Sequence record: OM386655.1
Source of the DNA: Escherichia phage vB_EcoM_ESCO10
Reading direction: 5' to 3' (one strand)
DNA length: 64,000 nt
Under the pieces are notes generated by a model. The model made no database searches, had not been told where the DNA came from, and saw only the letters and a list, made by a program, of their open reading frames with translations. This document shows, one piece after another, positions 1,335-59,570 of this stretch. The stretch's first letter is position 1, and each line of letters opens with the position of its first letter. Made by a program: the position numbers and the translations under genes.

Positions 1335-1856
1335 TTAATAACCTCGGTCCTGACGAGCAAAGTTCTCAGCATTTTTCAGATAATACAGTTTAAAGATTTC
1401 TTCAGCAGTCAGACCAAGGCCTTGGAACATATTCAGAACGAAATGGAGAATATCAATCATTTCAAATTTAATTTCGAGCTGGTCTTCAGGAGACAAATCG
1501 TTAATCAAGGTTTCACGACGTTCAGCATGTTGAGCTTTCCAAGGCTTCCATACTGCTGATGCATCTTTTTCACCATTGCTCATACCACCAAGAGAAGTCA
1601 GAAGTTCACGGAATTCATCATCAATATAATCTTTCTGATTACGCAGCCAATCAACAACTTCACCTGCAGTAGCCAAATCATCAGGGTGTCGGTTATATTC
1701 AGGTTTATCTTTAGCCAAACGGACCTGTAAAGATTTCTGCATATCAAGCATAACCTGCAATGGGTCTTTATCTTCGTGAATCAAGGCATTAAAATAAGCT
1801 TCCTCAGCTTTATCAACGCCAGCAATCAAACCACTACACTCATTAAAATGTGCCAT
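1335..1856 (-). CDS. 56: dCTPase/dUTPase (dCTP pyrophosphatase, gp56)
   Basis: 173 aa; strong similarity to T4 gp56 from memory; partner of gene 42 in hmC DNA synthesis. Confidence 0.85.
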   Translation of the reverse strand: MAHFNECSGLIAGVDKAEEAYFNALIHEDKDPLQVMLDMQKSLQVRLAKDKPEYNRHPDDLATAGEVVDWLRNQKDYIDDEFRELLTSLGGMSNGEKDASAVWKPWKAQHAERRETLINDLSPEDQLEIKFEMIDILHFVLNMFQGLGLTAEEIFKLYYLKNAENFARQDRGY

Positions 1857-1860
1857 TATA

Positions 1861-2517
1861 TTATTTCCTATTAAAGTTTTCTATCATTCGTCGATAACAA
1901 ATATCAGGATATCCATTATCGACAGCTATTTTATTAAATTTGGTGCGTTTAGGTTTATTATTATAAACCCATAATTCATAAAGCGCATCATAACTATCCC
2001 ATATTTCTCCTCGCCTAGGATTTGGTAAACCGTATCGAGGTGAATTTTTACCGCTAAATCTTCCTTTTCGAGCTTTACTCATATTAGCCTTGGCTTCATC
2101 GGATATAATTTTATCTTTATGAGCTAGACGCATTTTGGCTTTAGTTTCTTCTGGGGTCTTTTTGCCTTTAATCCATGACGGCTTGCCATATCTAGGATTA
2201 TTTTCACCTGTAACTAATAGTGAATTATTTTCCCTTAATGATGCTATAGTTCTGCTAGTTAATTTAACTCCTTTATTATATCTCATTAAATTAACGGCAT
2301 GATGCAGACCTTTTACTTCAGGATACATTTTTGTTAAAAGCCTATGGGCTATAAAGTGCTCTCTTGGTAATAAAGCCACTAAATTATTTTTATCATCGGA
2401 ACCATTCATACATTTGGGTACAATATGGTGTTCTTCTGTATAATATGGTAAGGACCGCTTGGTACCTCTTAATTTTCCATTAGATATTAATTCATTGTAT
2501 ATTTTTTCATAGTTCAT
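1861..2517 (-). mobile_element. HNH homing endonuclease (mob/I-Tev-like) with NUMOD3-type repeats
   Basis: 218 aa; HNH motif EEHHIVPK...NLVALLPREHFIAH; repeated NPRYGKP / NSPRYG motifs; visibly AT-rich; sits between genes 56 and 61. Confidence 0.8.
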
Positions 2518-9104: not shown

Positions 9105-9998
9105 TTAAAGGACCACGTCCTCATAACGTGGCATTTCGTACTCGGAATGAATATGAGCACCAAAATAAATGAATTCAGCCAAACCAGGATGGAATACTAA
9201 ACCAGGGTTCTCATGATAAATGATATGTGGTCTTGATTTCAGAATCTGGTAATATTCAACCTTACTCGGTTTGAATTTAATAATCTCTACATCAGGACGA
9301 TAGTCTCCACGTTTAAATGAATCGTTGGGGTCAGTGATATAGAGTCGAGCACCTTCAGCCGCAGCTCGGTCTACAACTCGTTCGAATTGGTAGCATTTAT
9401 CAGAGATACGAAATGGGTGAAAAATACCATCAATTTTAATAGGCGCTAGACCATCAGAGTAACGCTCAATTACTGCCGGATTAATTACCTTTTGGTCTAC
9501 AAAAATCTTATCAGAGGATGCACCTCGTGACACCAGGACGTCTTTCTGGCATTGATTCAGGACTGTAGTATAAATCGAACGTTCGACTGAAGCCACATCA
9601 ATATCAATGAATTCGTCGATATAATAACGAGGAACTTCAGGGTCCATTGTGATATTAAAGTTGAATTGTACAGTCTGGGCACCATCATAACCTGTGATAT
9701 CAGTTACCAACCCTGAGCAGTCATAGTATTCGATTAATGAATCGACTACGAACTCGTTTTCAGACCAGAAATGTTTACGGGTTTCATAAGCATTTTCTTT
9801 ATACCAAAGTGGCACAAAATTCAGTTCAGGGAATAACTCGATGCACTGGTTGATATCGCTCGAATTTCTAGGATAAGCCAGATAATCACCTGGCCGAGCA
9901 CGGTTTAAATGGAGTTGAAAATTGCCGTCCTTAAGGACAGCATATTCACCCGTTTCGTAACTACGCATACTGAAAATAGGAACGATAAACAGACTCAT
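9105..9998 (-). CDS. hypothetical protein in the beta-glucosyltransferase slot; candidate hmC DNA sugar transferase
   Basis: 297 aa; occupies the uvsX-42 position where T4 has beta-gt but does not resemble T4 Bgt; ATGA-coupled to gene 42; function inferred from position only. Confidence 0.6.
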   Translation of the reverse strand: MSLFIVPIFSMRSYETGEYAVLKDGNFQLHLNRARPGDYLAYPRNSSDINQCIELFPELNFVPLWYKENAYETRKHFWSENEFVVDSLIEYYDCSGLVTDITGYDGAQTVQFNFNITMDPEVPRYYIDEFIDIDVASVERSIYTTVLNQCQKDVLVSRGASSDKIFVDQKVINPAVIERYSDGLAPIKIDGIFHPFRISDKCYQFERVVDRAAAEGARLYITDPNDSFKRGDYRPDVEIIKFKPSKVEYYQILKSRPHIIYHENPGLVFHPGLAEFIYFGAHIHSEYEMPRYEDVVL

Positions 9999-10693
9999 TT
10001 CAGGAAACCTCGGACGTAGTCAAAATCACGTTCAAATACGTGTGCACTAACCATGGTGTGAGAATACGTACCCAAACCAACACCACACTGCTCTGCAATA
10101 AAGGCCATCAGTTTGCCCTGCAGATAGAAATCAAGCTGCATAACAACAGCACAGTTCTGTGAACGCATATGGGTATGTGCATACAAACGACCATCACGAA
10201 TGTAATACGTTACCGAATCAGTACAAGGATATTCTAGGGATTCGTCAGAATCAAGGAGAGCTTGGTCTTGTTCTTGGAGAATCTGGAACACAACTCTTCG
10301 CGAGTTAGGCTTTTCTTTAAGCTCTTTAAGTAGGGCTGGGAGCTGGGCCACAATTCGAGGTCCATAGAAAGTGTTGAAGTTTGCAGGCAATACGTCACTT
10401 TTCGGCTTATCAATGAACTTAGCAACATTAGGGTATTCCTTAAATGCTTCGGCGGCATCAGTACCACCGGAAATCATAAACTTCCAGAAAGATTCGGCAT
10501 AATCATAGTTGATACGATTAATACGAGGGTCAGTGAATTTATAGGTGCTTGCATCCAGTACTTCTACCGAAGCAGAACCAACTTCATAACAACGTCCGAT
10601 ACGAGAATCAACTGCAAACTGCGGAGCTTCCAGGATTTCTTCGTTCATTTGTTTAAATGCATTTTCAAAACTAACAGCGGTAATGTGTTTCAT
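9995..10693 (-). CDS. 42: dCMP hydroxymethylase gp42
   Basis: 232 aa; thymidylate-synthase-like; matches T4 gp42 from memory. Confidence 0.85.
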   Translation of the reverse strand: MKHITAVSFENAFKQMNEEILEAPQFAVDSRIGRCYEVGSASVEVLDASTYKFTDPRINRINYDYAESFWKFMISGGTDAAEAFKEYPNVAKFIDKPKSDVLPANFNTFYGPRIVAQLPALLKELKEKPNSRRVVFQILQEQDQALLDSDESLEYPCTDSVTYYIRDGRLYAHTHMRSQNCAVVMQLDFYLQGKLMAFIAEQCGVGLGTYSHTMVSAHVFERDFDYVRGFLK

Positions 10694-11226
10694 TTATTCA
10701 CCTTATTTTCAATATATTCATTCAGACGTTTTAATTCTACCATATCAACATTAAGCAAATTATTATGGCCATCATGATTTAAGATTTTAAACACGTTTTC
10801 AAAACATGTTTCGTATTGTCTGACAGTTAGGTTGAACTCATCTTTAGTTAATTTAATAAGGTCGTCTTCAAAGTCTTCATCCAACGGATTACGAGTTAAA
10901 ATAACCTCAATGATATTGAACTCTTCTTTGAATTCTTTCCAGTCTTTAAGCTCTTCTAATGGGTCCATTTCACCACGAAGGAATCCTGAGTAAACAATAT
11001 TACTAGGATACCCACGGTCTAAGATATAGACAAAATTTGGGTCTAAAAACTTATACAGAGTTTCAACTAGAGCCTTATCATTATCAGTTCCTAATGAAAT
11101 ACATTTACCGTTAATCTTCTTAGGAAAATCAATAAGCTTAAAATTAGTATTATTAAGTAATTTGTTAATTAAAGTAGACTTCCCGGAATTATCCGGGCCG
11201 TCGATAACAATGATTTTTGGTTTCAC
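10690..11226 (-). CDS. P-loop nucleotide/nucleoside kinase-like protein (dNK/TMK-like)
   Basis: 178 aa; Walker A IVIDGPDNSGKST at the N-terminus and DRGY motif; ATGA overlap with neighbours. Confidence 0.7.
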   Translation of the reverse strand: MKPKIIVIDGPDNSGKSTLINKLLNNTNFKLIDFPKKINGKCISLGTDNDKALVETLYKFLDPNFVYILDRGYPSNIVYSGFLRGEMDPLEELKDWKEFKEEFNIIEVILTRNPLDEDFEDDLIKLTKDEFNLTVRQYETCFENVFKILNHDGHNNLLNVDMVELKRLNEYIENKVNK

Positions 11227-11606
11227 GGATGATATGCCTTATAGGTTTCAAGAGTTCCTTCACGAACCATTTCTTTAAAGTGGTCGGGACGGATTGCTCG
11301 GTCATCAATGATAAAATTATAACTCGGCTTGTGTGTAAGCAAATTGTGATATTTCAATCCAATTTTTTCAAGGTTCTTAACCAATGCAGGAACTACTTCA
11401 ACCAAGATTCGACCAGGGCCACATGAAGTCATACCACGGGCGGTGAACAATGTAATCTCGCACCCTTCATCATAAAGCTTGTTAATCATGGACACCATTT
11501 CAGTGTCCGGTTTAAAGTTTTCATAATCACGGTCATGGTTCCAAATCGTGATTGTGTTATCTATATCAAAACATAAATGCGGCTTATTTTCTACTCGATG
11601 GGACAT
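11223..11606 (-). CDS. HAD-superfamily phosphatase (small, capless)
   Basis: HAD motifs I CFDIDNTIT, II LFTAR, III HKP, IV IIDDR; start chosen as the ATG overlapping the upstream stop (TAATG); track ORF begins 5 codons earlier. Confidence 0.75.
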   Translation of the reverse strand: MSHRVENKPHLCFDIDNTITIWNHDRDYENFKPDTEMVSMINKLYDEGCEITLFTARGMTSCGPGRILVEVVPALVKNLEKIGLKYHNLLTHKPSYNFIIDDRAIRPDHFKEMVREGTLETYKAYHP

Positions 11607-13279
11607 TAAATTTTCTTCCATTGTTTGTGGAGTTCAGTAGAACCTGTAGGTTTATATTTTACACCAGTTTCCTGGTCAAGCAAAACCCACTTATCAGGAC
11701 AACGAGTAATAATTTGTGCCGTAATAGGGTCACGAACTTCATCAACGAATTCACCTGTAATAAGCTTACGCTTACGAGGGTGCCGCTTAAGCAACACACT
11801 CAGTTGGTACAAACCATTGTAATAAGCACCTAGAGCTTTCAGAGGATTATTCTTAAAGTAACCCGCTAGCGCCATCCAAATAACAGCAATCCAGAGCTTG
11901 TGCTTAAATGTACACATCGGAATATCGTCTAAAGGCATGACCTTTTCAATATCAACGAATACGCGAGTTCCATTACGGGTTAAGCCACCCCATAGAGGGT
12001 CTGAGTTAAATTTATCATAGCCATCGATAGAATAAAGAACCTTAGCTTCATCATAAATCGCAGGGCCTTTAGAACTATTGCCGAAATAACCACGTGGGTC
12101 GATGATTTTAATATCACCTTCGTCCGACAGCATAATATTACTGTAGTGCGGGTCGCCATGAATAAGTTGATACGGTTCTTTATGTTCAGACAGAATTTCT
12201 AAGGCATGACGAAGAAGTTTTTCTGGATTACCAACCTTGAAATCGTTAACATGGGTGATGCCCTGTGGAGCAAAGCCTTCAATCAATCCAGCAATAGAAG
12301 CATTACGAATCAGGACCTTGTCCAATACTTCTTTCTTAACATCAGAATACCATTGCTCATCAGATGGGTTATCGATAGTTCCGCCAAATGAACGTAATGC
12401 ACTAATGACCTTATAAACCATGAGGACTTTAGTTTCTTTAGACATAAACCGGTAGGCGTCCGCCATAGTACGGCCAAAAATACGTTCCATCTTAATAAAT
12501 TCACCTGGAGCAAAGTCTACAATGCTCGGAACGAATTCAGAATCAATAGAATTATACCAATTGATTTCTTTAGATTGAATTTCTTTACCTAATTCGTTGG
12601 TTGGTACTTTAATAGCCAGATTCTCAGTGAATTCTAATTTATTAAATTCGCGATTAATTTCAGAATCTTCATGAGCCTTGGCCAGTTTCAGTTTATCGCC
12701 AACATCAACTACAAAGTCCAGCTTACGTTCAGTCAAATAAACCATTGAATCCAGATTGTCCGCAAGGTCTTCGCCGTAATTAGAGCGGTCGAATCCTGTC
12801 CAATTCGCCACCTGATACAAACCAACTACACCACCACCTGTACCAATTTCACGTAAGTACGGTTCTTCAAATGTAAAGCGACAATCGGTCCCATAGGTAT
12901 AACAATAATCATTACCCCACTCAACTTTATGGCCTTCAGGAATTATGTCACACCAGTTAAATAGAACGTTATGCCCGATAATATCTTCAGCAATGCAATC
13001 AATAGCATGAGCTGAACCGTTAGCAACATCCACATTACGAATAGTGAATTTAGGCTTATCACTAGTAATCATGTTAATGGATTTAATATAGCCTTTAACG
13101 AGGTCGTTAAATTTGCTGTGAATAACCAGAATAATTTCATCTGATTGGTTACTATACAAATCATACAAATGCTTTAATACCGTATGTTGTTTATAGTTAA
13201 CCAATACCTTAGGGATTTCATTAGTAATTGGATACAACCGTGAGCCAAGACCTGCGCCTAAAATAACAACCTTTTTCAT
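11606..13279 (-). CDS. bifunctional sugar-1-phosphate nucleotidyltransferase (N-terminal) / APH-choline-kinase-fold kinase (C-terminal)
   Basis: 557 aa from ATG with GAGGAA RBS; N-terminal VVILGAGLGSRLYPIT (GlmU/RmlA-type motif); C-terminal HGDPHYSNIML...IDPRG (Brenner catalytic loop of APH/CK kinases). Confidence 0.8.
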   Translation of the reverse strand: MKKVVILGAGLGSRLYPITNEIPKVLVNYKQHTVLKHLYDLYSNQSDEIILVIHSKFNDLVKGYIKSINMITSDKPKFTIRNVDVANGSAHAIDCIAEDIIGHNVLFNWCDIIPEGHKVEWGNDYCYTYGTDCRFTFEEPYLREIGTGGGVVGLYQVANWTGFDRSNYGEDLADNLDSMVYLTERKLDFVVDVGDKLKLAKAHEDSEINREFNKLEFTENLAIKVPTNELGKEIQSKEINWYNSIDSEFVPSIVDFAPGEFIKMERIFGRTMADAYRFMSKETKVLMVYKVISALRSFGGTIDNPSDEQWYSDVKKEVLDKVLIRNASIAGLIEGFAPQGITHVNDFKVGNPEKLLRHALEILSEHKEPYQLIHGDPHYSNIMLSDEGDIKIIDPRGYFGNSSKGPAIYDEAKVLYSIDGYDKFNSDPLWGGLTRNGTRVFVDIEKVMPLDDIPMCTFKHKLWIAVIWMALAGYFKNNPLKALGAYYNGLYQLSVLLKRHPRKRKLITGEFVDEVRDPITAQIITRCPDKWVLLDQETGVKYKPTGSTELHKQWKKI

Positions 13280-13339
13280 TATCTGTTCCTCAAGTGAATG
13301 TAGGTACATTATACACTATTTTTAATAAATTTCTATTGC

Positions 13340-13840
13340 TTAAATCTTATCTTTACCGTATTCCATACACTGTTCTAATGCGGCAGGCACTTTGGTCTTA
13401 AGCTTGTTGATTTGTTTCTTATAATCACGGGCCTTATCAAAGCTTTCAGTTTCGAGCATTTCGTAATAACGGGCCTCATGGATGGAAATCTGTAGATTGA
13501 TATGATTATAACACATTGAGTACAGTTTCTGTTTCTTATATAGGTCGTCTTGTCGCTTCATTTCTGCCTGGTGTTTGGCAAGTACGGCTTCGCGCTTAGA
13601 CTCTTGTTCACGTTGAAATTCAATTTCACGAGCCGCATATTTACCGCAGTTATTTCCGCATTGGTTATTAGCTCGGGTATAAGTAATTCCCGACCCGGCG
13701 CGGAACTTAACTTCACCATCATACTGTTTCTGTTCAGCTGCAATACGAGCTTTACCTACTTCGTCAGCTGTAATAGCTTCACCGTATTGGACTGCACACC
13801 CAGAGAGTAATAATGATGCTGCGATAATTAGCTTTTTCAC
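13340..13840 (-). CDS. lipoprotein (166 aa)
   Basis: signal peptide with lipobox LLSGC; charged coiled-coil-like remainder. Confidence 0.6.
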   Translation of the reverse strand: MKKLIIAASLLLSGCAVQYGEAITADEVGKARIAAEQKQYDGEVKFRAGSGITYTRANNQCGNNCGKYAAREIEFQREQESKREAVLAKHQAEMKRQDDLYKKQKLYSMCYNHINLQISIHEARYYEMLETESFDKARDYKKQINKLKTKVPAALEQCMEYGKDKI

Positions 13841-22107: not shown

Positions 22108-22357
22108 CGTTATAAGCATCCTTGATGCATGATTCGGCCATATGGATTAATGTTTCCGGGGTATCACCTTCCATTACATTAAAACTAAATTCTACAGCCC
22201 AATCAGTCGCAACGTAAACTTTAATAAGCTCGCCTGTATCACGAGCACTCACTGCTTCAAACCAGAACTTAATAATGTTCGTTTGGTTATCGTCATCGAC
22301 AACCAGGCAATCATGTTCAAGCTCAAGGCCTGATTTTTTGAATTCATCTAAAGTCAT
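22094..22357 (-). CDS. hypothetical protein (87 aa)
   Basis: ORF between 47 and 46. Confidence 0.45.
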   Translation of the reverse strand: MTLDEFKKSGLELEHDCLVVDDDNQTNIIKFWFEAVSARDTGELIKVYVATDWAVEFSFNVMEGDTPETLIHMAESCIKDAYNDEDF

Positions 22358-23373
22358 CGTGTAACCTCATTATAAAGTTGGGCCGCCATAGTCTTAAGGG
22401 CTTTAACGTCATCTTCAGTATGGCCATCAGGAAGAGCATCGATATAATCATACATCATATCCAAGAGCGACTTAACTTCGTCTTCCTCTTCAGAATCATC
22501 AATATCAACGCTGTTATCTACCTTAGACACAATGCGTAAAGAATGAACTACCTTTTCAAGTTCAGATTCAAACTTAGTAAGCCCGTCATCGATTTTATCG
22601 ACTATAACACGAACTGCAATATTTGTAAAATCTTTGTAATCGATGGTTGCATTAGGATAATGAATCTTACGATGCCAACAGGTTTCATTGATAACAAAAT
22701 CCATTTTATGGGTTTCAGTATCGAAAATCCAGAAACCTCGAGGGTCGTTCTCATCACCTGCAGTAAGGGTCCATGGAGTACCGATGTACTTAACGTTTGC
22801 GGCATCAGAAATAGTATGGAAGTGGCCAGACCAAACTTGCTTATACTTTTTAAGGAAATCGGGTTCTAAACCGTGAGATTTCATTCCTTTATAGAAATAG
22901 AAACCATTTAATTCCCAGTGACCGATACAGAAATCTGCTGTAGTATTTTTGATATGTTCCATGATATCAGTCGTGTTTTCTTCACACATCCATGGAATCA
23001 AATCAATTTCGGTGCCATCAAAGTTTACTGTTGTAGGTTTCTCGATAACCTTGATATGGTCATATTTACCGAGAACTTCAGAAGCAGCATTAGGAGTTAA
23101 GGTATTTTTGTAGTGCATATCATGATTACCAACAACGGTATACATGGTAATGCCATTAGCTTTAAGCAAATCAGAGATTTCGCGAGCGAATTCCATACAC
23201 TTATGGGTAATTGCTTTACGAACGTCAAAGATATCACCGTATTGAATCCATACAGTAATACCGTTTGCTTTAGAATAATCAATAGCGTCTTGGATACCTT
23301 GGCGTTGGATATTTTGTACCCACACATCATCGGCTTTCACTCCAAGGTGCCAATCACCTGTGTTTAATATTTT
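22354..23373 (-). CDS. 47: recombination nuclease subunit gp47 (Mre11/SbcD-like)
   Basis: 339 aa from MKILNTGDWHLG; phosphoesterase motifs GDWH, GNHD. Confidence 0.9.
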   Translation of the reverse strand, partial: KILNTGDWHLGVKADDVWVQNIQRQGIQDAIDYSKANGITVWIQYGDIFDVRKAITHKCMEFAREISDLLKANGITMYTVVGNHDMHYKNTLTPNAASEVLGKYDHIKVIEKPTTVNFDGTEIDLIPWMCEENTTDIMEHIKNTTADFCIGHWELNGFYFYKGMKSHGLEPDFLKKYKQVWSGHFHTISDAANVKYIGTPWTLTAGDENDPRGFWIFDTETHKMDFVINETCWHRKIHYPNATIDYKDFTNIAVRVIVDKIDDGLTKFESELEKVVHSLRIVSKVDNSVDIDDSEEEDEVKSLLDMMYDYIDALPDGHTEDDVKALKTMAAQLYNEVTR

Positions 23374-23563
23374 CATAAGCCAAGCACCGTTATCGCAATG
23401 CAAAATAAAATTATTGAAATGAACCCATCAGGAGTAGAAAAGAATCCTATCCAACAAGCTCGTGTGAATGTGTAGAATGCCATGAATAACACGACATATC
23501 CTAAAAATAATTCCATATACTCTCCTCAGTTGGTTCATTTTATCATCCCGAATATAAAGCAAA

Positions 23564-23586
23564 AAAGGAAGCACTAGGCTTCCTTT
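23564..23586 (-). terminator. intrinsic terminator hairpin (9-bp stem, U-run)
   Basis: AAAGGAAGC-loop-GCTTCCTTT with flanking A/T runs. Confidence 0.5.
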
Positions 23587-23805
23587 CCAATTAATACACC
23601 GTACAGAGGTTCATGAGAAGACCTGAACTTGATGGGCTTATAGGTAATAGTACCTTCATTTTCTGCTTTAATACGAGCGGCTTCAAATTGAAGTATCATC
23701 TCATTTTTGTCAGATTTAATCTTATCAAAATCCGTCGAACTCGTCATTCATATGACCTCTTAAAAATCTGGGTGTTCGTCTTTCATTAGCCTGCCGTCCA
23801 TGTTA

Positions 23806-24006
23806 TCATCGCTGCCACCATTTCTTAAGCTGATGTGAATCAACCCAAACCTTGGCTACAGGCTCAATCTGAAAAATACCGTCAGAATACTGGCCAATCA
23901 TTTTGTATTCAGTTTCAGACTGCTTAATACAGATATTACCGTACGAGCGAAGTCTGAAAGCGGCTCCAATAAGAAGCCGTTTAAAGGGTTTATTTACTAG
24001 CGCCAT
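23806..24006 (-). CDS. hypothetical small protein (66 aa)
   Basis: ORF. Confidence 0.35.
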   Translation of the reverse strand: MALVNKPFKRLLIGAAFRLRSYGNICIKQSETEYKMIGQYSDGIFQIEPVAKVWVDSHQLKKWWQR

Positions 24007-24301
24007 TGATAATTTCCCAAATCTGTTTACGTGTAGTTTCCCACATAACTCTAACGATTTCGTCGGTAGTTGGTTGTCGGTAAATACTACGCAATTTAAT
24101 TATAGCATATTTGTAAGCTTCGAAATTGTTTTCGAGAACAGCACCCTGTGCATGTTTATTAAGACGTGTAATTTCACGGGCATTCTTTTTAAGGATTTTA
24201 GCAGCCTGTGAAGAGGCTTCTTTAGCATTGTTCTCTTCTAAACGCTTCTGAGCTTCTTCAATCTGCTTATCAGTCAATTGAGAAATGTCGGTGCTTTGCA
24301 T
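23990..24301 (-). CDS. hypothetical protein (103 aa)
   Basis: ORF; charged helical sequence. Confidence 0.45.
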   Translation of the reverse strand: MQSTDISQLTDKQIEEAQKRLEENNAKEASSQAAKILKKNAREITRLNKHAQGAVLENNFEAYKYAIIKLRSIYRQPTTDEIVRVMWETTRKQIWEIINGASK

Positions 24302-24302
24302 A

Positions 24303-24566
24303 TTAATCCTTGTAATTCAATTTTATATAAAAATCTTCGTCAGTAACGTGATAGTTATAAGTTAATGTTCCTTTTTCAGTTTTAATTTCTACCGAATCAG
24401 GGTGTTTCGGGTCTATTACAATAGGAAGTTTGGCAATATCCTTAAGATACATTTTAAGAACATAAGGAATTGCCGAATACTCTCCATCTACTTCTTCTAA
24501 AAGGCCTACCAGGTTAATCTTGAGTTCCATATAAAAAATCCAGCTCACCAACTTTAGATTCAGCAC
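24303..24566 (-). CDS. hypothetical protein (87 aa or shorter)
   Basis: ORF overlapping the 3' end of gene 55; true start probably internal. Confidence 0.4.
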
Positions 24567-25071
24567 TCTTATCAGACCCTGGTGCTTTAACTAAAGAGGT
24601 TTCATACTGAGTCATTTTGTCGTAAATATCCTGGATAAAAGTTTCATCTGCGATACCTACCATGTCGTCGTCATTAGCGTCATAAACGTTATGGACGAAG
24701 TAGCTATATTTCTTTGCCATTTCTTTACGTTCTTTCTTGATACGCTGAACGAAGGCATTAAAACAAGCCATAGTGATATATGCATGTGGGTTGTCGTATT
24801 TTGTTTCGTCGAAGTTGTGAAGACCTTTAATAGAAGCTTCGATTCCATCAGCAATCATTTCTTGCTTCCAGGATTGGGTATATCCGGAGAAGTTAAAACG
24901 TTTACTTAGGCCTTCAGCAATGAGCATAATAGCCAAGCCGATAACGTCGTTCTGACGAACTATTTTATTAGGGTCGGTATTTTCTCGGAGCTCTGTTTTC
25001 CACTGGGTAATGGCTTTAAGAAGCTCCTTATTATTTACATAGTTATTTTTAGTCAGTTTAATTTCGGTCAT
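24514..25071 (-). CDS. 55: late sigma factor gp55
   Basis: 185 aa; matches T4 gp55 in length and sequence from memory. Confidence 0.85.
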
Positions 25072-35620: not shown

Positions 35621-35905
35621 TTATTTCTTACAACCTACATATTTAGGCATATGGCAGAAAACAGAATCGGTAACTACTCGACCTTTGGCCCATGCTTCCT
35701 GTGCTTTACCGTGAGTAGTATTCACATAGCTGGATTTAATATTCTCGATACCTTGAGAATGTGATGCGTGTGCAGAACCATTAGAAGGACCTGCTGACTG
35801 ACTTGAACCTTGACCGCCCGGGCCTGATGTGCCTTCAGTAGCCAGTACACCAAAAGACATAACAGCGGCCAACAGGCCTATAGCCACTTTTAATTTTAAT
35901 TTCAT
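35621..35905 (-). CDS. secreted small protein (94 aa)
   Basis: N-terminal signal peptide MKLKLKVAIGLLAAVMSFGVLA; Gly/Ser-rich mature region. Confidence 0.5.
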   Translation of the reverse strand: MKLKLKVAIGLLAAVMSFGVLATEGTSGPGGQGSSQSAGPSNGSAHASHSQGIENIKSSYVNTTHGKAQEAWAKGRVVTDSVFCHMPKYVGCKK

Positions 35906-36163
35906 ATTTTCACCTTTTATTAACTCAACATTGAGTAAGATTATTGTATACTAAAGTTTTAAAGCATTTAAATAGCGCTCCAATAATTATGGAAGCGGAT
36001 ATCATTGATTGCCCAGTTAACAAACCTGCGAGTTTGCTTGGGAGTTGGTTTACATATGTACTTATTGTTGATTCGTCTGCCGGTTTCCCGACAGACTGCT
36101 TCGAGATACCAGCGCCGACCTTTATTGGGTCTTCCATATGATAAGAAGACCTTCATTTCTTCA

Positions 36164-44323: not shown

Positions 44324-44910
44324 TGCATTCCAATCACAAAAAATTGAGGTCGAGTATTACCACCAATGCAAAATTTACTATCGCAGCAGTACTGTACAGT
44401 GTCAATATGGGCACTATAAATCTTATCCATATCAGGAGATTTAATAGGCTCATCAATTATATACAAAATTCGCGAAAGCTTTAAACCTCTGAACTTGCTT
44501 CCTTTATTACCGATAAAGCTACGTAATGAATCATGGAAAAGCCGGTAACGAATATCTTCCGCGCTAAAACGAATAAAATCATTTTTGATAGAATCGGATG
44601 AAATTTTAGCGTAAGCTGAAGTATTAGAAAGAACAATAACTGTTCCGCCATCATATAACCAATTGGCAGCAAAGTTAGTCACAGCAATTGATTTACCGGA
44701 TTGACGTCCACCATCTATACGAAGTGTGCAATACTGTTTAAGTACGTCTTCAAATGGCGGGATATAATCGTTTTTACAAAGTTCTTCTATTCGAGCATCA
44801 GAATGGTGGGTAAAAGCATTCATCAGGGATAGATAAGGTCCGGTTAAAAAAGTTCTCATATTGTTTCTCTTAAGGTTTTGGGGCCATTCCTTGGCACATA
44901 ATTCATCCAT
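44320..44910 (-). CDS. P-loop NTPase-like protein (196 aa)
   Basis: Walker A-like GGRQSGKS. Confidence 0.5.
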   Translation of the reverse strand: MDELCAKEWPQNLKRNNMRTFLTGPYLSLMNAFTHHSDARIEELCKNDYIPPFEDVLKQYCTLRIDGGRQSGKSIAVTNFAANWLYDGGTVIVLSNTSAYAKISSDSIKNDFIRFSAEDIRYRLFHDSLRSFIGNKGSKFRGLKLSRILYIIDEPIKSPDMDKIYSAHIDTVQYCCDSKFCIGGNTRPQFFVIGMQ

Positions 44911-45021
44911 GTATCCGTATGTAACCCTTTACCGCACTTGGGCTCGACCTTATTACAGGTAGGGAAAGGTCCATCACTCAGAGGACGCGACGTTCATGAG
45001 GAGAGGGCCGGCTTGCCTTTA

Positions 45022-45321
45022 TTAGAAAGAACCAGAGCCTTTAATTGTATTCTGACGTCCTTTATTTTCTACTTCAGAGTGGTCGATTTCGTAAGCTTGT
45101 GCTACACCAAAGGATTTTTTAATTTTAGCCAATGAGCCTTTAGAAATAACAATGTTAAAGGTGTTGCCTTTAGAAAAATCAACCAACTCTACAGTAACAC
45201 CGTTATTGGTTAAACTATTAACAATAGCATCAACATATTGCTGGTCTAAAGTTCCCTGAACGCCAATTTGAAAAGCTTTAGGTGCTTTAGCTTCAGTGAT
45301 AAATTCTTGATATGTTTTCAT
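45022..45321 (-). CDS. internal protein (IP) with capsid targeting sequence
   Basis: N-terminus MKTYQEFITEAK matches the T4 IP capsid-targeting sequence (MKTYQEFIAEA). Confidence 0.65.
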   Translation of the reverse strand: MKTYQEFITEAKAPKAFQIGVQGTLDQQYVDAIVNSLTNNGVTVELVDFSKGNTFNIVISKGSLAKIKKSFGVAQAYEIDHSEVENKGRQNTIKGSGSF

Positions 45322-45329
45322 ATTATTCC

Positions 45330-45689
45330 TTAAAGATGGTCAAGGGCTGGGTTATGAGGTTTTTCTGCTTTAGTAGTGTTTTTATGCCAATCTGATTTAG
45401 AAACACGGATGGCATCAGCGCCATAAGAACTCTTAAGGAGACCTTTTTTATTGTACACACTTATTGAAGTAAGAGAATCACCATTCCATGTAGCATGAAT
45501 GAAGTTAGATTTAGATTTAAGTTCTTTAGCCAAGCTCTGGTTAGTGGCCATGGAAGCAAAGTCTATACCTGTAACTTTAAAAACTTCAGATGGGTTCAGC
45601 CCTTCTTTAGCCTTAGCCAATTGTTCAGGAGACATACCTTCGTTAATGCGCTGAGTAGATTCAGTAATAAATTGTTTGTAAGTTTTCAT
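45330..45689 (-). CDS. internal protein (IP) with capsid targeting sequence
   Basis: N-terminus MKTYKQFITES. Confidence 0.65.
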   Translation of the reverse strand: MKTYKQFITESTQRINEGMSPEQLAKAKEGLNPSEVFKVTGIDFASMATNQSLAKELKSKSNFIHATWNGDSLTSISVYNKKGLLKSSYGADAIRVSKSDWHKNTTKAEKPHNPALDHL

Positions 45690-45731
45690 ATTATTCCTTA
45701 AGTTGATAGAAGTATTCTATCACGGATTTAA

Positions 45732-46148
45732 TTAAGCGTAAATAGCCTTACCATAATGTTTGTACCAGGTAGGGCGTTGTGCAATTTTTTCGTCTAAACG
45801 GGCTTGTGATATAGCGATAGAAGCTTCATGGGGAATATAATCACCACGGAATTCCTGAGGAATATCACTAATATCCTGGACTGTAGTATCCTTGATATTA
45901 AACCCGCGTTTTAGACATTCGGCTATAAGCTCAATTTGACGTTTACGTAAGAACTCAAGCTTATCGTAAAAGAATGTAACATGACCCGTGCCAAGGATAA
46001 AACCTGAGCTGATTTTAAAATCACGAACACGTTTACCATTAGCAACATGCTTACGAACTGCACTGAAAACACGTGGTAATTCACGATATTCAGCCATTAA
46101 GTGTTGGTCAGCCAATTCAGATACTAAAGTAAGGTTGATACGAGTCAT
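45732..46148 (-). CDS. denV: endonuclease V (pyrimidine-dimer DNA glycosylase) DenV
   Basis: 138 aa from [26 protein letters not shown] (near-identical to T4 DenV from memory); track ORF is extended 59 codons upstream; RBS AGGAG. Confidence 0.9.
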
Positions 46149-46162
46149 TTTTAATCTCCTGT

Positions 46163-46205
46163 GTCGGTATGAGAGTATCATATCACAACTACAGGAGATG
46201 TAAAC
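46163..46205 (-). promoter_or_regulatory. early-promoter-like element (divergent member of repeat family)
   Basis: GTTTAC with conserved spacer; located between e and denV. Confidence 0.45.
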
Positions 46206-46209
46206 AACT

Positions 46210-53626: not shown

Positions 53627-53702
53627 AGTATTTCCTTCAGTTAGATGGCATTTTGTAATCCATGAGGGCATTATACCCTGCCCTCGGAGGTTTGTAAACA
53701 TT

Positions 53703-54101
53703 TTATTTCATTTTTGCTAGGCAGATTTCATTGGCTTCCCATTGAGCTTGCTTAATAATAGCTTTGGACACAGGAACCTTTTGACCATAAGTGTTTGACG
53801 TCGAGAGAACAATATATTTGTTTGCCTCATTATGCCATCCCCGTGATTTTTCGCCATGAGTACCTTTAATTACAGCTGACACCTCAACAGAGCAGCCATC
53901 AGAACTAATCTTGGTGTCTACAATCCATTCATTTCTCTCGGCGGCTTCAATTTCCGATCTCATTTTTTCTTCATACACGGCAGCCCAATCAGTTTGTGTC
54001 AATCTTAAACTAAGAGCTTTCTTTAATTCTTTGGCAGCTTTTTGTTGTTCAGGTGTTAATGAATTATATAACTCTCGCATTTCTTTATCTTCGATATTCA
54101 T
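53703..54101 (-). CDS. hypothetical protein (132 aa)
   Basis: ORF. Confidence 0.45.
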
Positions 54102-54158
54102 TATGTTCTCCTCAAATTATGGGCTCATAATATCTCAATCATGAGCCCATGTAAACAA

Positions 54159-54432
54159 TTATTTCATATTATTGAAATATTCTTCTGCGATTTCATCGTT
54201 ATCATGGTAAATTTTAGTAGACAATTTAACATAACCTTCAGCAGCAAACATATTAACCACAACCTTTACAGTATACCACTGACCGTCGTCATTACCCATT
54301 ACTGCATAGGTTTCAAATATGGGATGGTCTTCACCAACAACTTTAATATCGTTAACAGTAGCACCAAATTCTTCCGGAACACATTTCATAAAGAAATTAA
54401 ACAGTTCACCGTAATTATCCATTTCATTCTCC
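54159..54432 (-). CDS. hypothetical acidic protein (87 aa from ATG)
   Basis: ATG after GGAGAA; track start is a TTG leader extension. Confidence 0.45.
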
Positions 54433-54464
54433 AAGTTGTTTTTCTGTATCAGTAGTTGATAGTT

Positions 54465-54506
54465 GTATAGTACCATGGAAGAACAGGGATGTAAACAGTT
54501 TTGTGA
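54465..54506 (-). promoter_or_regulatory. T4-type early promoter (repeat family variant)
   Basis: GTTTAC ... TACTATACAACTATCAAC. Confidence 0.5.
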
Positions 54507-54634
54507 AAAATTTTTTAAAAAGTTTTAGGGAATTCTAGGGAAGGGTGGGGCAATTAAAAGATAGGATAATATATTATAAAGGGTAGAAACTAAATGATGC
54601 CTAGAGAGGCCCAGAAAGGCCTAGATACCAAAAA

Positions 54635-54656
54635 GCCCCAACCTTTCGGTTGGGGC
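54635..54656 (-). terminator. intrinsic terminator (GCCCCAACC-GAAA-GGUUGGGGC + U-run)
   Basis: 9-bp perfect stem with GAAA loop on the minus transcript, a few nt after the stop of 54665..55126. Confidence 0.6.
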
Positions 54657-54664
54657 TAAGAATG

Positions 54665-55126
54665 TTATTTGATTTGTTTAGCAGACCAAATGCGGTCTTT
54701 GATGATTTTTTGGAGGTCTTCAACATACTCTAGGTCATGAGCATGTGGATTATCTTTAAAACTATGAGCTCGCGCAAGTTTCTGGCCTTCAGTCTTAATT
54801 ACCAAAAGTTCTTTAAGAATTGCTTCATATCTAGAGATAATTCCTTTAGCAATATTTTTTTCTTGTGCTGCTTTAGGGTCAGCCTTAGGAGCAGGTTTAC
54901 CAGAAGGTTTTTCGAAAGCCGCCCCAGTAGCAACCAGGCTTTTCCAGGCGGTGGTAACATAGTTACCCACAAAGCCTTCAGCTCTCATATCGTCGTAGAA
55001 CTTGTACCGAGATTCGTCAGAAGCATCTTTATAAGAATATTTACCTGCTTGGATAGCTGCTTGAGCTGCTGCACGAACATCAGAACTAGATGCTTCGGTC
55101 ATTAAAAATTCGTTGTAAGTTTTCAT
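54665..55126 (-). CDS. internal protein (IP) with capsid targeting sequence
   Basis: 153 aa; N-terminus MKTYNEFLMTEA; late promoter box about 29 bp upstream. Confidence 0.6.
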   Translation of the reverse strand: MKTYNEFLMTEASSSDVRAAAQAAIQAGKYSYKDASDESRYKFYDDMRAEGFVGNYVTTAWKSLVATGAAFEKPSGKPAPKADPKAAQEKNIAKGIISRYEAILKELLVIKTEGQKLARAHSFKDNPHAHDLEYVEDLQKIIKDRIWSAKQIK

Positions 55127-56491: not shown

Positions 56492-56603
56492 ATTTTCCTC
56501 ATTAGTTGATTATTCTATTATGAAAGGCTCTTTGAGGGAAGAACCTTTGGTAATAGAGGGTACTTATTAATAATAACACACTGCTCTTAAAGCATATTAC
56601 TTG

Positions 56604-57543: not shown

Positions 57544-58221
<678 letters not shown>

Positions 58222-58229
<8 letters not shown>

Positions 58230-58980
58230 TTTTATTTCCTAATAATTTATCAATAGTAGTGTATAGTTCAGAAAGGGTTCCGTTATTTTCAATAACAACG
58301 TCACCCGGTAAAATTGGTAGACCCGCTTCAGTAATGTGCGAGTCTTGTACTTGACCGGTATCAGCGCGAACTACGTGAATAATCGTAGCACCCATCGCCC
58401 TGAGCGAATCAATTTCATGTGTTTGACGAACATCAGGTACGACATAGTATTTCGCATCAGAATATATTCTATCAAAATAGTCTAAAGCGAATAACTTAAC
58501 CCAATACATCTTATCAAATTGGTTAACAATAACATCGGTCCCAAGGGTCTGCATGAGACGACGTACTGACCAATTGTTAATATTATTTATTACTTCAAAC
58601 AGGTAGTCTTTTGTTTCTTCAGACAAATACTGGATAGTAGGGCCGTAATGATACTGGGTACAGACATCAATTCCTTTAATAGGAAGTATATTATTCAGTT
58701 TAACGATAGCATGTTCAAAGATGTCAATAACATCATATGGTTTTAAAGGAAGGATTTCTTCGCGGTTGTATCCAATACCTTCAAAACAATTAAAATCTAA
58801 TTTAGGCATATAGCTACGATCGAATACGGGGTCATCAGATATGTATTCGTAAGCTTCTGCTAGATACTTTTTAATAGGCCCAGCGAGCTGGAATTTAACA
58901 GAATCCATATTCTCAATTACATAGTTAGCAACGGTGTCCTTACCGCTACGTTTGAGTCCTACAATTGATATTAGTTTCAT
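58222..58980 (-). CDS. 1: deoxynucleoside monophosphate kinase gp1
   Basis: 252 aa; P-loop GLKRSGKDT; position as T4 gene 1. Confidence 0.85.
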
Positions 58981-59570
58981 TATTTTCTCATAGATGGATG
59001 CATAGACATACGTGCCACACGTTGTTCGGCATACGAATCAATTTGTGGACGACCTGTAACTATTGTACCATCTATTTCTACAGCAAACGACTTGAAGTTG
59101 AATGTTGCTGTGGCAATTATTGCAGGGTCAGAATCTTCTTTATAAGAGTACTGGATCTCGGAAAGGTCCGACGGCCATCCACCATAGTAATGGATGCTCA
59201 TTACGATTTTCTGTTTATTGTTATCAAGGATATGAAGCGTAATCGCTTCAGGCAGGCCTTTAGGATGCCATGCTTCAGATTCATGGGTTACATAGTTGTT
59301 TAATGATAACATCCATTTATAAATGTCCATCCATGATTTCAATTCACGGTCTACAAGAAAGTTTACAATCAAGGGGTCGAATTCTACAGTAGAACCTGGC
59401 AGCTTAGCACGATGTATACCCTGGGTCGATCCTGGGACATCTGAAATCGGAATATGGATACCTGGTAGTGTTACATCTTGCACGTTTAATTTGAATGACT
59501 GAGTCATTCCAGAGTCACTAACCTCTAAGATAAAGTTAGTAGTGTTAGTTTGGTTAAATAAACCGTTCAT
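58980..59570 (-). CDS. 3: tail completion / sheath stabiliser gp3
   Basis: position between genes 1 and 2; an internal Met would give 175 aa. Confidence 0.7.
   Translation of the reverse strand: MNGLFNQTNTTNFILEVSDSGMTQSFKLNVQDVTLPGIHIPISDVPGSTQGIHRAKLPGSTVEFDPLIVNFLVDRELKSWMDIYKWMLSLNNYVTHESEAWHPKGLPEAITLHILDNNKQKIVMSIHYYGGWPSDLSEIQYSYKEDSDPAIIATATFNFKSFAVEIDGTIVTGRPQIDSYAEQRVARMSMHPSMRK

Follow-up and report, generated by a model that had tools for sequence, protein, structure and literature searches.

An RB69-type gene cassette predicted to make glycosylated 5-hydroxycytosine in a Dhakavirus lacking T4-type glucosyltransferases

The interval between genes 47 and 55

The window, a stretch of 64,000 nucleotides from Escherichia phage vB_EcoM_ESCO10 (OM386655.1), belongs to a Dhakavirus (JS98/VR5 group), a T4-like coliphage. 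It is collinear with positions 13.3-76.7 kb of its closest relative, phage VR5, at 84-98% identity, with 93-98% identity in every block longer than 700 bp. Statements on this isolate refer to the 64-kb window, and those on the remaining ~106 kb are drawn from the complete VR5 genome. The segment 23374-24513 is 97.9% identical to VR5 and extends exactly from the start of gene 47 to the stop of gene 55; all open reading frames (ORFs) of the interval lie on the minus strand (Table 1). In T4 the gene order is 47, 47.1, a-gt, mobB, a-gt.2 to a-gt.5, and 55. Here, 47.1 and a-gt.2 are only 57 bp apart at the place where T4 carries a-gt and mobB, and this spacer contains a hairpin and a promoter but no gene. 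The RB69 layout is likewise devoid of a-gt. A sequence-only reading of the window had reported that the interval holds small ORFs and a terminator and that alpha-gt is missing; both points were confirmed by tblastn and by a full ORF inventory of 23374-24513, which comprises five ORFs of the a-gt/47.1 type, the hairpin, and additionally the putative middle promoter.

Table 1. Features of the 47-55 interval and genes with a predicted role in DNA modification (positions in the window)
Feature	Position	Strand	Similarity and family
Gene 56, dCTPase/dUTPase	1335..1856	-	69% to T4 gp56, full length
Compact GT-B glycosyltransferase, 297 aa, T4 b-gt slot	9105..9998	-	Orthologue of RB69 gp46:47 (66%)
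Thymidylate synthase (TS)-family enzyme in gene 42 position, predicted 5-hydroxy-dCMP synthase	9995..10693	-	78.8% to RB69 gp48
Thymidylate-kinase (TMK)-like P-loop nucleotide kinase, 178 aa	10690..11226	-	37% to RB69 gp45; phrog_761
HAD-type sugar-phosphate phosphatase, 132 aa, DxDxT motif	11223..11621	-	63% to RB69 gp51
Bifunctional sugar-1-phosphate nucleotidyltransferase (N-terminal) and APH-type sugar kinase (C-terminal), 557 aa from MKKVV	11606..13279	-	
Gene 47 (SbcD-like recombination nuclease subunit), left boundary	22354..23376	-	71% to T4 gp47 over 339 aa
47.1 homologue, predicted membrane protein, 47 aa	23373..23516	-	82% to T4; 100% to VR5; phrog_6693
Single regulatory cassette in the place of mobB and a-gt (stem-loop and putative MotA-type middle promoter)	23537..23588	-	
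a-gt.2 homologue, 57 aa	23574..23747	-	55% to T4 a-gt.2; phrog_2140
a-gt.3 homologue, 66 aa	23806..24006	-	46% to T4 a-gt.3; phrog_1648
a-gt.4 homologue, 103 aa	23990..24301	-	44% to T4 a-gt.4; phrog_951
a-gt.5 homologue, 75 aa, overlaps 3' end of gene 55	24303..24530	-	51% to T4; 100% to VR5
Gene 55 (late sigma factor), right boundary	24514..25071	-	78% to T4 gp55
Gene 1, dNMP kinase	58222..58980	-	95% to VR5 CDS annotated as T4 gp1 homologue

The terminator-like hairpin (23588..23562, minus strand) has an 11-bp stem, a 5-nt loop, and a T run, and its MFE is -14.8 kcal/mol (56-nt context; z = -1.9). It is followed by a putative MotA box, TTGCTTTA (TGCTT at 23561..23557), a 12-nt spacer, and the -10 box TAAAAT (23542..23537). 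The strict Mot-box pattern occurs twice in the window, against 0.23 expected occurrences. The same composite of hairpin and promoter is found at the a-gt.2|47(.1) junction of JS98, VR5, and RB69, whereas T4 has two copies, one at each junction flanking mobB and a-gt; the stems of these composites vary by paired changes. In this interval, the site of the T4 mobB and a-gt module stands empty. The single cassette here, as opposed to the two flanking cassettes of T4, fits a module that would have been gained or lost via recombination between such cassettes. The arrangement resembles the PeSL/PmSL cassettes of T4-like phages, in which a stem-loop terminator also directly precedes a promoter and which likewise recur at the edges of variable gene modules (Arbiol 2010; Comeau 2014). 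It differs in that the promoter is of the MotA (middle) type. The a-gt locus is not mentioned in this literature (Arbiol 2010; Comeau 2014), and a role of the cassette in a-gt gain or loss is suggested here by the sequence layout alone.

Neither the window nor the complete VR5 genome contains a homologue of, or a significant tblastn match to, T4 Agt or T4 Bgt. The best E values in the window are 0.03 for Agt (a 36-residue match within the HAD phosphatase gene) and 0.59 for Bgt, and in VR5 nothing falls below 0.088 and 0.1, respectively. A permissive tblastn for remnants of either gene (word size 2, E up to 100) returned chance-level matches only, the best being the short, N-terminal 36-residue match in the HAD phosphatase gene already named. 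Ten further large ORFs of the window with no assigned function were scanned against Pfam; this revealed no hidden glycosyltransferase, the matches being to DUF7235, DUF7275/7277, AAA-like, and RlaP families. The 657 phage records with an Agt homologue belong to Tequatrovirus-like and Klebsiella groups. The absence of both enzymes from JS98-type phages is already known: the missing gt genes of JS98 were published in 2010, and JS98-type phages are stated to be without them (PMC2993671).

A five-gene cassette between DNA polymerase and uvsX

The region between the DNA polymerase/imm genes and uvsX contains a cassette of five genes. The enzyme encoded in the gene 42 position belongs to the TS family (Pfam Thymidylat_synt, E = 4e-14) and matches PDB entries 9iqu/9iqc (E = 1e-125), but it is 78.8% identical to RB69 gp48 and only 24% to T4 gp42. 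In an alignment with E. coli ThyA, T4 gp42, and RB69 gp48, it keeps the catalytic C146 and carries L143E, N177D, D169N, W80A, and G173V, the same active-site pattern as RB69 gp48. L143E and N177D are common to this enzyme and T4 gp42, whereas positions 169/80/173 read N/A/V here and D/W/G in T4 gp42; W80 is also kept in ThyA and in VR5 Td. The enzyme thus has the TS fold with Cys146 and the dCMP-selective N177D in common with T4 gp42 but not the D169 and W80 that a T4 gp42 orthologue would retain. It has the complete D169N, N177D, and L143E signature of 5-hydroxy-dCMP synthases of the RB69 gp48/DLP3 gp80/HY126 type (PMC13326640). For RB69 gp48 and nine further D169N enzymes, formation of 5hodC has been demonstrated; O2 supplies the oxygen, and flavin is the cofactor (PMC13326640). 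The product of the homologue in the window, a predicted 5-hydroxy-dCMP synthase, is most likely 5-hydroxycytosine and not hydroxymethylcytosine.

The slot of beta-gt had been read as holding an unrelated 297-aa protein. An ORF of this length does lie between uvsX and the TS-like gene, but its product is modelled confidently as a GT-B glycosyltransferase of a family different from that of Bgt. It is the orthologue of RB69 gp46:47, the predicted first arabinosyltransferase, and its gene is syntenic with the synthase gene, as in arabinosyl-5-hydroxycytosine clusters.

The three remaining genes encode a bifunctional kinase/nucleotidyltransferase, a HAD phosphatase, and a TMK-like kinase, the first two forming an AfhE/AfhF-like pair. 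Pfam places NTP_transferase at residues 13-110 and APH at 361-427 of the 567-aa ORF at 11606-13309 (10 must be subtracted for the 557-aa protein), which is 42% identical to the fused RB69 gp53:52 and 81% to its Klebsiella homologue. The TMK-like kinase is 90% identical to the homologue of Klebsiella Marfa-like phages. The phosphatase matches the structures 9iqw (E = 1e-54) and 1xpj (E = 8e-12) and, below cut-off, TIGR01689 (capsule biosynthesis phosphatase). Relatives carry it under the mistaken annotation "phosphoheptose isomerase". This function, annotated in VR5, was considered for the 132-aa protein as a stand-in isomerase and rejected in view of the HAD DxDxT motif and the match to the phosphatases 9iqw and 1xpj. 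RB69 additionally possesses the isomerase gp55, the U32-like gp50, gp49, and the second transferase gp3, of which no homologue was detected in the window or the VR5 genome. The slot between rIIA.1 and gene 39 holds two small ORFs. Of the missing proteins, gp55 is the phage-encoded arabinose-5-phosphate isomerase, and gp3, like DLP3 gp76/77, is an additional transferase for a second or third arabinose.

Predicted base and sugar

The homology of the synthase, the GT-B orthologue, and the neighbouring sugar-activation genes together indicate that the DNA is most likely glycosylated 5-hydroxycytosine. It is likely that the phage, without Agt and Bgt, makes an O-glycosylated 5-hydroxycytosine by means of an RB69-type five-gene cassette; the alpha- and beta-glucosyltransferases would be absent because the phage does not use the glucosyl-hydroxymethylcytosine system of T4. 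Dhakaviruses are named among the clades with a conserved 5hodC cluster (Lee et al., 2026). A literature search found no chemical analysis of Dhakavirus DNA.

In the proposed pathway, gp56, an orthologue of the T4 enzyme, would convert dCTP to dCMP, and the TS-like enzyme would hydroxylate dCMP to 5-hydroxy-dCMP, as its 79% identity to gp48 and D169N suggest. The gp1 dNMP kinase and the host NDP kinase would yield the triphosphate, to be incorporated by the polymerase. The 557-aa enzyme and the 132-aa phosphatase, by homology to AfhE/AfhF and to the RB69 gp52:53/gp51 scheme, would take a pentose-5-phosphate via the 1,5-bisphosphate and the 1-phosphate to an NDP-pentose. Since the phage is without an isomerase of its own, the starting sugar would most likely be host arabinose-5-phosphate from KdsD/GutQ. 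The small GT-B enzyme, judged from its fold, would move the sugar, probably arabinose, onto the 5-hydroxyl. Given a single transferase, a single sugar per cytosine would be expected.

The identity of the sugar rests on weaker homology than that of the base, as the kinase/nucleotidyltransferase (42%), the phosphatase (63%), and the TMK-like kinase (37%) are much less similar to RB69 proteins than is UvsX (91%). The base could be 5-hydroxycytosine and the sugar either not arabinose or made otherwise (e.g., from ribose-5-phosphate, or xylulose/ribulose-derived) by a distinct, "type B" module. The kinase/nucleotidyltransferase does stand apart: 51 records, including every Dhakavirus listed (JS10, dhaeg, WG01, AnYang), show at least 95% identity to it, Klebsiella Marfa-like phages ~81%, and Providencia phage PSTCR6 72%. 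In the other 287 records, among them those of the arabinosylating RB69/Mosigvirus, Serratia LC53, and Acinetobacter phages, identity is at most 47% among the matches listed and below 60% throughout by identity band. The isomerase is missing from all three type B loci examined; matches to it occur in 276 records, whereas the transferase has matches in 352. The same split is followed by the HAD and TMK-like proteins but not by uvsX and gp41. However, the transferase is about equally similar (66-68%) across both module types, which argues for the same donor, and the kinase-phosphatase-nucleotidyltransferase logic is unchanged. Moreover, Kdo synthesis in E. coli, Klebsiella, and Providencia alike runs through arabinose-5-phosphate, so a phage isomerase would be dispensable. 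A different sugar, or a different route to it, is unlikely.

The type B module pairs with a 5-hydroxy-dCMP synthase and a single GT-B transferase and is seen in no chemically analysed phage, so its adduct could carry a sugar other than arabinose. A tentative and rather doubtful proposal is that Dhakaviruses, Klebsiella Marfa-like phages, and PSTCR6 share a distinct isomerase-less module whose adduct could be a non-arabinose glycosyl-5-hydroxycytosine, or else a minimal, five-gene version working from arabinose-5-phosphate. A different sugar would extend the glycosyl-5-hydroxycytosine family, while arabinose from host arabinose-5-phosphate would make this the smallest gene set for the modification and tie phage DNA modification to Kdo metabolism.

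From genes 42 and 56, both taken as intact, the sequence-only reading had concluded that the phage makes hydroxymethylcytosine and probably modifies it further with something other than glucose; on this model, a non-glucose sugar would sit on the hydroxymethyl group. Gene 56 does encode a true orthologue of T4 gp56, but the supposed gene 42 is not an orthologue of T4 gene 42. The shared N177D and L143E in the gene 42 position and older literature listing JS98 with a gene 42 allele (PMC2993671) speak for hydroxymethylcytosine, which was also the 2018 view of RB69 DNA (arabinosyl-hmC). That assignment has since been corrected to arabinosyl-5-hydroxycytosine (PMC13326640, PMC13390438). With 79% identity to a proven 5-hydroxy-dCMP synthase against 24% to T4 gp42, with D169N, and with the W80 of ThyA, Td, and gp42 lost, hydroxymethylcytosine is very improbable; the earlier interpretation survives as to the missing glucosyltransferases and fails as to the base. 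Equating genes 42 and 56 with hmC DNA leads to the wrong annotation of an entire set of T4-like phages, and the practical value of the result lies in correcting this.

Still less probable is a modified base without a sugar, the 297-aa protein serving another role. In its favour, Petrov et al. (2010) considered that JS98 DNA might be unglycosylated, the first transferase family has been demonstrated to be active in vitro in no phage, and individual DLP3 transferases showed no activity on 5hoC DNA. However, more than 350 phage genomes conserve a complete NDP-sugar module and the GT-B gene together beside the gene of the base-modifying enzyme, and all chemically analysed phages with this transferase are glycosylated (PMC13326640). 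A canonical Agt or Bgt encoded in the ~106 kb of the isolate's genome beyond the window deserves almost no weight, given the complete, collinear VR5 genome (mostly 93-98% identical) without a match below E = 0.088 and the absence published for JS98-type phages.

Comparison with other phage systems

The chemistry of their DNA decides how Dhakaviruses, which are employed in phage-therapy cocktails and defence-system screens, fare when faced with restriction enzymes, type IV nucleases, CRISPR, or DNA glycosylases. It also governs whether sequencing and engineering them is feasible.

The closest analysed counterpart is RB69 (Mosigvirus), whose DNA was chemically shown to contain arabinosyl-5hoC. 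Its system (synthase gp48, transferases gp46:47 and gp3, gp52:53, gp51, gp55, and gp45) lies in the same slot between gene 43 and uvsX. Both phages have an orthologous 5hodCMP synthase (79%), the first GT-B transferase (66%), a TMK-like kinase, a kinase/nucleotidyltransferase and a HAD phosphatase of the same domain architecture, and a 47-55 interval without a-gt. They differ in gene order, the TMK-like gene being upstream of the synthase gene in the window, and in the sugar-activation proteins, which are only 37-63% identical. One sugar per base is predicted here, compared with one or two in RB69. The T4 system (gp42, gp56, gp1, Agt, and Bgt) is more distant: its base enzyme sits on a different branch (24% identity; D169N and loss of W80 in the window) and adds a folate-derived hydroxymethyl group, whereas the enzyme of the window, by homology, would add an O2-derived hydroxyl via flavin. 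T4 uses host UDP-glucose, while the sugar donor would here be made by the phage, which has no sequence homologue of Agt or Bgt.

Compared by gene set and size, a similarly minimal set is found in the pentosyl-cytosine system of Shewanella phage Thanatos (TH1_060, TH1_062, TH1_063), with a nucleotidyltransferase/kinase of ~560 aa, a TS homologue of ~235 aa, and a GT-like protein of ~300 aa. Lee et al. describe Thanatos DNA as mono-arabinosylated by a single transferase, whereas the Thanatos authors describe the sugar as a deoxypentose and assign pyrophosphorylase activity to the 300-aa protein. Klebsiella Marfa-like phages and Providencia PSTCR6 have the same gene order as the window (kinase/nucleotidyltransferase, HAD, TMK-like, synthase, transferase) and the same type B proteins (81-90% in the Klebsiella phage), again without an isomerase. 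Unlike the Dhakavirus cassette, they keep the U32-like gene (85-89% to RB69 gp50). A 199-aa Providencia ORF considered as an isomerase candidate was rejected, as it encodes a second TMK-like kinase.

The gene 47-gene 55 interval and its relatives

The 2.9-kb stretch around 23374-24513 shares 97.9% identity with Escherichia phage vB_EcoM-VR5 and ~94% with JS98 and JS10, all of the genus Dhakavirus. VR5 13.3-76.7 kb is collinear with the whole window at 84-98% identity (93-98% in every block >700 bp), and the minus strand carries nearly all window genes. Adjacent denV-region and ip7-region blocks stand in swapped order (window 44843-46209 versus VR5 58081-59007), and several short stretches, e.g. 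35624-36163 and 53641-55117, lack an equivalent in VR5, which indicates local rearrangement or replacement in hyperplastic regions. The HNH homing-endonuclease gene beside gene 56 matches T4 MobB over its N-terminal half at 41% identity and carries the annotation MobE in VR5. In T4 this region has segF and dam; the window showed no dam homologue at its gene 56-primase locus.

The interval fills exactly the space that separates gene 47 (22354-23376) from gene 55 (24514-25071), and, as the sequence-only reading had it, holds only small ORFs. Those identified by tblastn with T4 proteins and the ORF list (see table) follow one another as a-gt.5, a-gt.4, a-gt.3, a-gt.2 and 47.1 in the direction from gene 55 to gene 47, and share 44-82% identity with the corresponding T4 proteins. 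T4 has the 1.2-kb a-gt and the homing-endonuclease gene mobB between a-gt.2 and 47.1, where the window has a 57-bp spacer. The tblastn check that had been proposed, with T4 Agt and Bgt at very permissive settings, gave no significant match in the window or in the full VR5 genome (assembled from five pieces); the RB69 layout likewise lacks a-gt. The absence is thus correctly observed but is not new for phages of this group: JS98 and RB69 have gene 42 and 56 homologues without glucosyltransferase genes, and which modification they carry has been posed as a question (Petrov et al., 2010; PMC2993671).

Homology to T4 a-gt.2 runs upstream of the annotated ATG (23748-23801, minus strand; MDGRLMKDEHPDF*EVI*M...). 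Because it continues 5' through two in-frame stops, the Dhakavirus gene looks N-terminally shortened relative to that of T4 (57 versus 63 aa), and the stretch before its ATG looks like a degraded leftover of the 5' end.

Coordinates of the modification genes, the interval genes and related loci
Feature	Coordinates	Strand	Identification
HNH homing-endonuclease gene	1861-2517	-	between gene 56 and primase gene
297-aa protein	9105-9998	-	b-gt slot
'Gene 42'	9995-10693	-	thymidylate-synthase family (Pfam E = 4e-14)
Thymidylate-kinase-like (TMK-like) kinase	10690-11226	-	37% identity to RB69 gp45
132-aa HAD phosphatase	11223-11621	-	DxDxT motif; 63% to RB69 gp51; PDB 9iqw, E = 1e-54
557-aa nucleotidyltransferase/kinase	11606-13279	-	N-terminal sugar-1-phosphate nucleotidyltransferase, C-terminal APH-type kinase domains; 42% to fused RB69 gp53:52
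166-aa predicted lipoprotein	13340-13840	-	MKKLIIAASLLLSGC lipobox; phrog_1754; between sugar module and imm
47.1	23373-23516	-	T4 protein tblastn, ORF list
a-gt.2	23574-23747	-	T4 protein tblastn, ORF list
a-gt.3	23806-24006	-	T4 protein tblastn, ORF list
a-gt.4	23990-24301	-	T4 protein tblastn, ORF list
a-gt.5	24303-24530	-	T4 protein tblastn, ORF list
'Type B' genes, window	10690-13279
'Type B' genes, Klebsiella Marfa-like locus L013	2295-4933
'Type B' genes, Providencia PSTCR6 locus L014	6001-9265
U32-like gene gp50, RB69 locus L005	6837-8006
U32-like gene, L013	5084-6244
U32-like gene, L014	9493-10656
Lipobox protein, L014	5525-6004		position equivalent to the 166-aa lipoprotein

The predicted modified base

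Genes 42 and 56 had been taken as intact. This stands for gp56, a true orthologue (69% identity to T4; gp47, gp55, gp56 and 47.1 span 69-82%), but not for 'gene 42', whose product is 24% identical to T4 gp42 and 78.8% to RB69 gp48. Among PDB entries, 9iqu, 9iqc and 9ir2 match it at E = 1e-125, and T4 gp42 (1b49) at just 6e-6. The names of the former are silent on source, but the entries appear to belong to a phage HY126 series because of the adjacent accession 9iqz and what Lee et al. relay of He et al. In an active-site alignment with E. coli ThyA, VR5 Td, T4 gp42 and RB69 gp48, the protein keeps the catalytic Cys146 and shares L143E and N177D with gp42; D169N, W80A and G173V are exactly the RB69 gp48 pattern, T4 gp42 having D169, W80 and G173. 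RB69 gp48 and DLP3 gp80 turn dCMP into 5-hydroxy-dCMP, drawing the oxygen from O2 and using a flavin that they bind; D169N is diagnostic, and nine further D169N enzymes produce 5hodC (Lee et al., NAR 2026; PMC13326640). The step from gene 42 to hmC DNA therefore fails, as this enzyme shares D169N with the 5-hydroxy-dCMP synthases, and the base is predicted to be 5-hydroxycytosine.

That the modification is probably not glucose was rightly judged. Arabinose was found in RB69 DNA (Thomas et al., 2018), the structure of which is now corrected to arabinosyl-5-hydroxycytosine (Lee et al., 2026, PMC13326640; Readshaw et al., 2026, PMC13390438), and eleven clades, Dhakaviruses included, are listed as having the conserved cluster (PMC13326640). 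The literature searched contained no report of Dhakavirus DNA having been analysed chemically. The defence system PD-T4-3 acts against CLB_P2, a Dhakavirus, and not against a Mosigvirus, which hints at a phenotypic difference between the genera but cannot be attributed to DNA modification.

Predicted sugar activation and transfer

The b-gt slot does hold a 297-aa ORF, with no Pfam, NCBIfam or PDB match by sequence, yet the protein is not unrelated: it is 65-68% identical to RB69 ORF046c and ORF047c, one gene split by a sequencing error, whose product gp46:47 is the proposed first, base-proximal arabinosyltransferase (PMC13326640). Its matches are sucrose-phosphate synthase 6kih (score 17.8), BshA (16.9), PimA (16.2), the phage HY126 glycosyltransferase 9iqz (14.0) and T4 Agt 1y6f (13.5). 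For gp46:47, too, 6kih is the top match (PMC13326640). The protein is thus likely the replacement transferase. Homologues occur in 352 phage records and 117 clusters of a large protein database; all lack annotation, and Serratia phage 92A1 is one source.

Three further cassette genes lie upstream, following gene 43, imm and the lipoprotein gene in transcription order. In the scheme of He et al., as far as relayed by Lee et al. (PMC13326640), the bifunctional enzyme converts arabinose-5-P to the 1,5-bisphosphate, the HAD enzyme takes off the 5-phosphate and the nucleotidyltransferase domain forms UDP-arabinose. The nucleotide branch would be completed by gp56 and gp1. The window and the whole of VR5 lack homologues of RB69 gp55 (arabinose-5-phosphate isomerase), gp50 (U32-like), gp49 and gp3 (second transferase); the rIIA.1-gene 39 slot holds gp3 in RB69 and two small ORFs in VR5. 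With no phage isomerase the pentose phosphate would have to come from the host, and E. coli makes arabinose-5-phosphate for Kdo via KdsD/GutQ. With a single transferase, one sugar per cytosine would be expected, as reported for Thanatos. The best-supported model is thus mono-glycosylated 5-hydroxycytosine DNA, most likely arabinosylated, that would be made by a minimal five-gene cassette.

By sequence, the sugar-activation proteins stand apart as a lineage of their own, 'type B'. For the bifunctional enzyme, identity reaches 95% or more in 51 records, including every Dhakavirus listed (JS10, dhaeg, WG01, AnYang), ~81% in Klebsiella Marfa-like phages and 72% in Providencia PSTCR6; in the other 287 records, RB69/Mosigvirus, Serratia LC53 and Acinetobacter phages among them, it is at most 47% among the matches listed and <60% throughout by identity band. 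Together with the HAD and TMK-like proteins, this enzyme is 72-90% identical among the three groups and 37-66% to RB69. The HAD protein and TMK-like kinase split likewise (86% and 90% versus 63% and 37%); uvsX, gp41 and the transferase show no such split. The isomerase is absent from all three 'type B' loci. The U32-like gene is kept in the Klebsiella and Providencia loci, where the RB69 U32 'peptidase'-like protein is 85-89% conserved, above any other cluster protein. Members of the U32 family include enzymes that hydroxylate RNA pyrimidines and ubiquinone without O2, and so, speculatively, this protein might supply 5-hydroxycytosine anaerobically, by a route dispensed with in Dhakaviruses. 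Of the whole locus, this lineage co-variation alone was not found discussed in the literature searched; because of it the sugar, or the way it is made, may yet differ, and the isomerase-less module, as read from sequence, is the remaining novelty.

Across the window, VR5, RB69 and Klebsiella records, several public labels mislead: the HAD phosphatase is a 'phosphoheptose isomerase' (PHROG 1238, several GenBank records), the 5-hydroxy-dCMP synthase a 'thymidylate synthase' or 'dCMP hydroxymethylase', and the transferase a 'hypothetical protein'. The lipoprotein, whose place in Providencia PSTCR6 is taken by another lipobox protein, may have a superinfection-exclusion or envelope function near imm.

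Putative terminator-promoter cassettes at the a-gt position

The terminator noted in the interval is real as a sequence feature: a hairpin at 23588..23562 (coding strand), with an 11-bp stem, 5-nt loop and T run, overlaps the a-gt.2 stop codon. Directly after it stands the MotA-box-like TTGCTTTA (TGCTT at 23561..23557), followed twelve bases on by TAAAAT (23542..23537), a Shine-Dalgarno and the 47.1 start. Box and TAAAAT suggest a putative T4-type middle promoter, a reading that leans on the MotA box and -10 consensus. It also draws on PMC4122927, where promoter-stem-loop cassettes are described. The composite (stem-loop, T(T/A)GCTTTATA, ~12 nt, TA(A/T)AAT) recurs at the a-gt.2|47(.1) junction in JS98, VR5 and RB69, and twice in T4, at the a-gt.2|mobB and a-gt|47.1 junctions. 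Stem sequences vary between phages with pairing kept (GGAAGC/GCTTCC, GGAGC/GCTCC, GGAACTC/GAGTTCC, GGGC/GCCC). T4 mobB and a-gt are therefore bracketed by two cassettes, and the phage studied here has the single-copy, empty site of a module so bounded. The layout is as would be expected if mobB and a-gt were gained or lost via recombination between cassettes; such module exchange has been proposed for PeSLs of other T4-like phages, and here only the layout points to it.

The pattern TGCTTTA-N12-TANNNT occurs twice in the window versus 0.23 expected by chance; the second exact match, at 56570-56594 (minus strand) in the tRNA/internal-protein region, is a candidate middle promoter.
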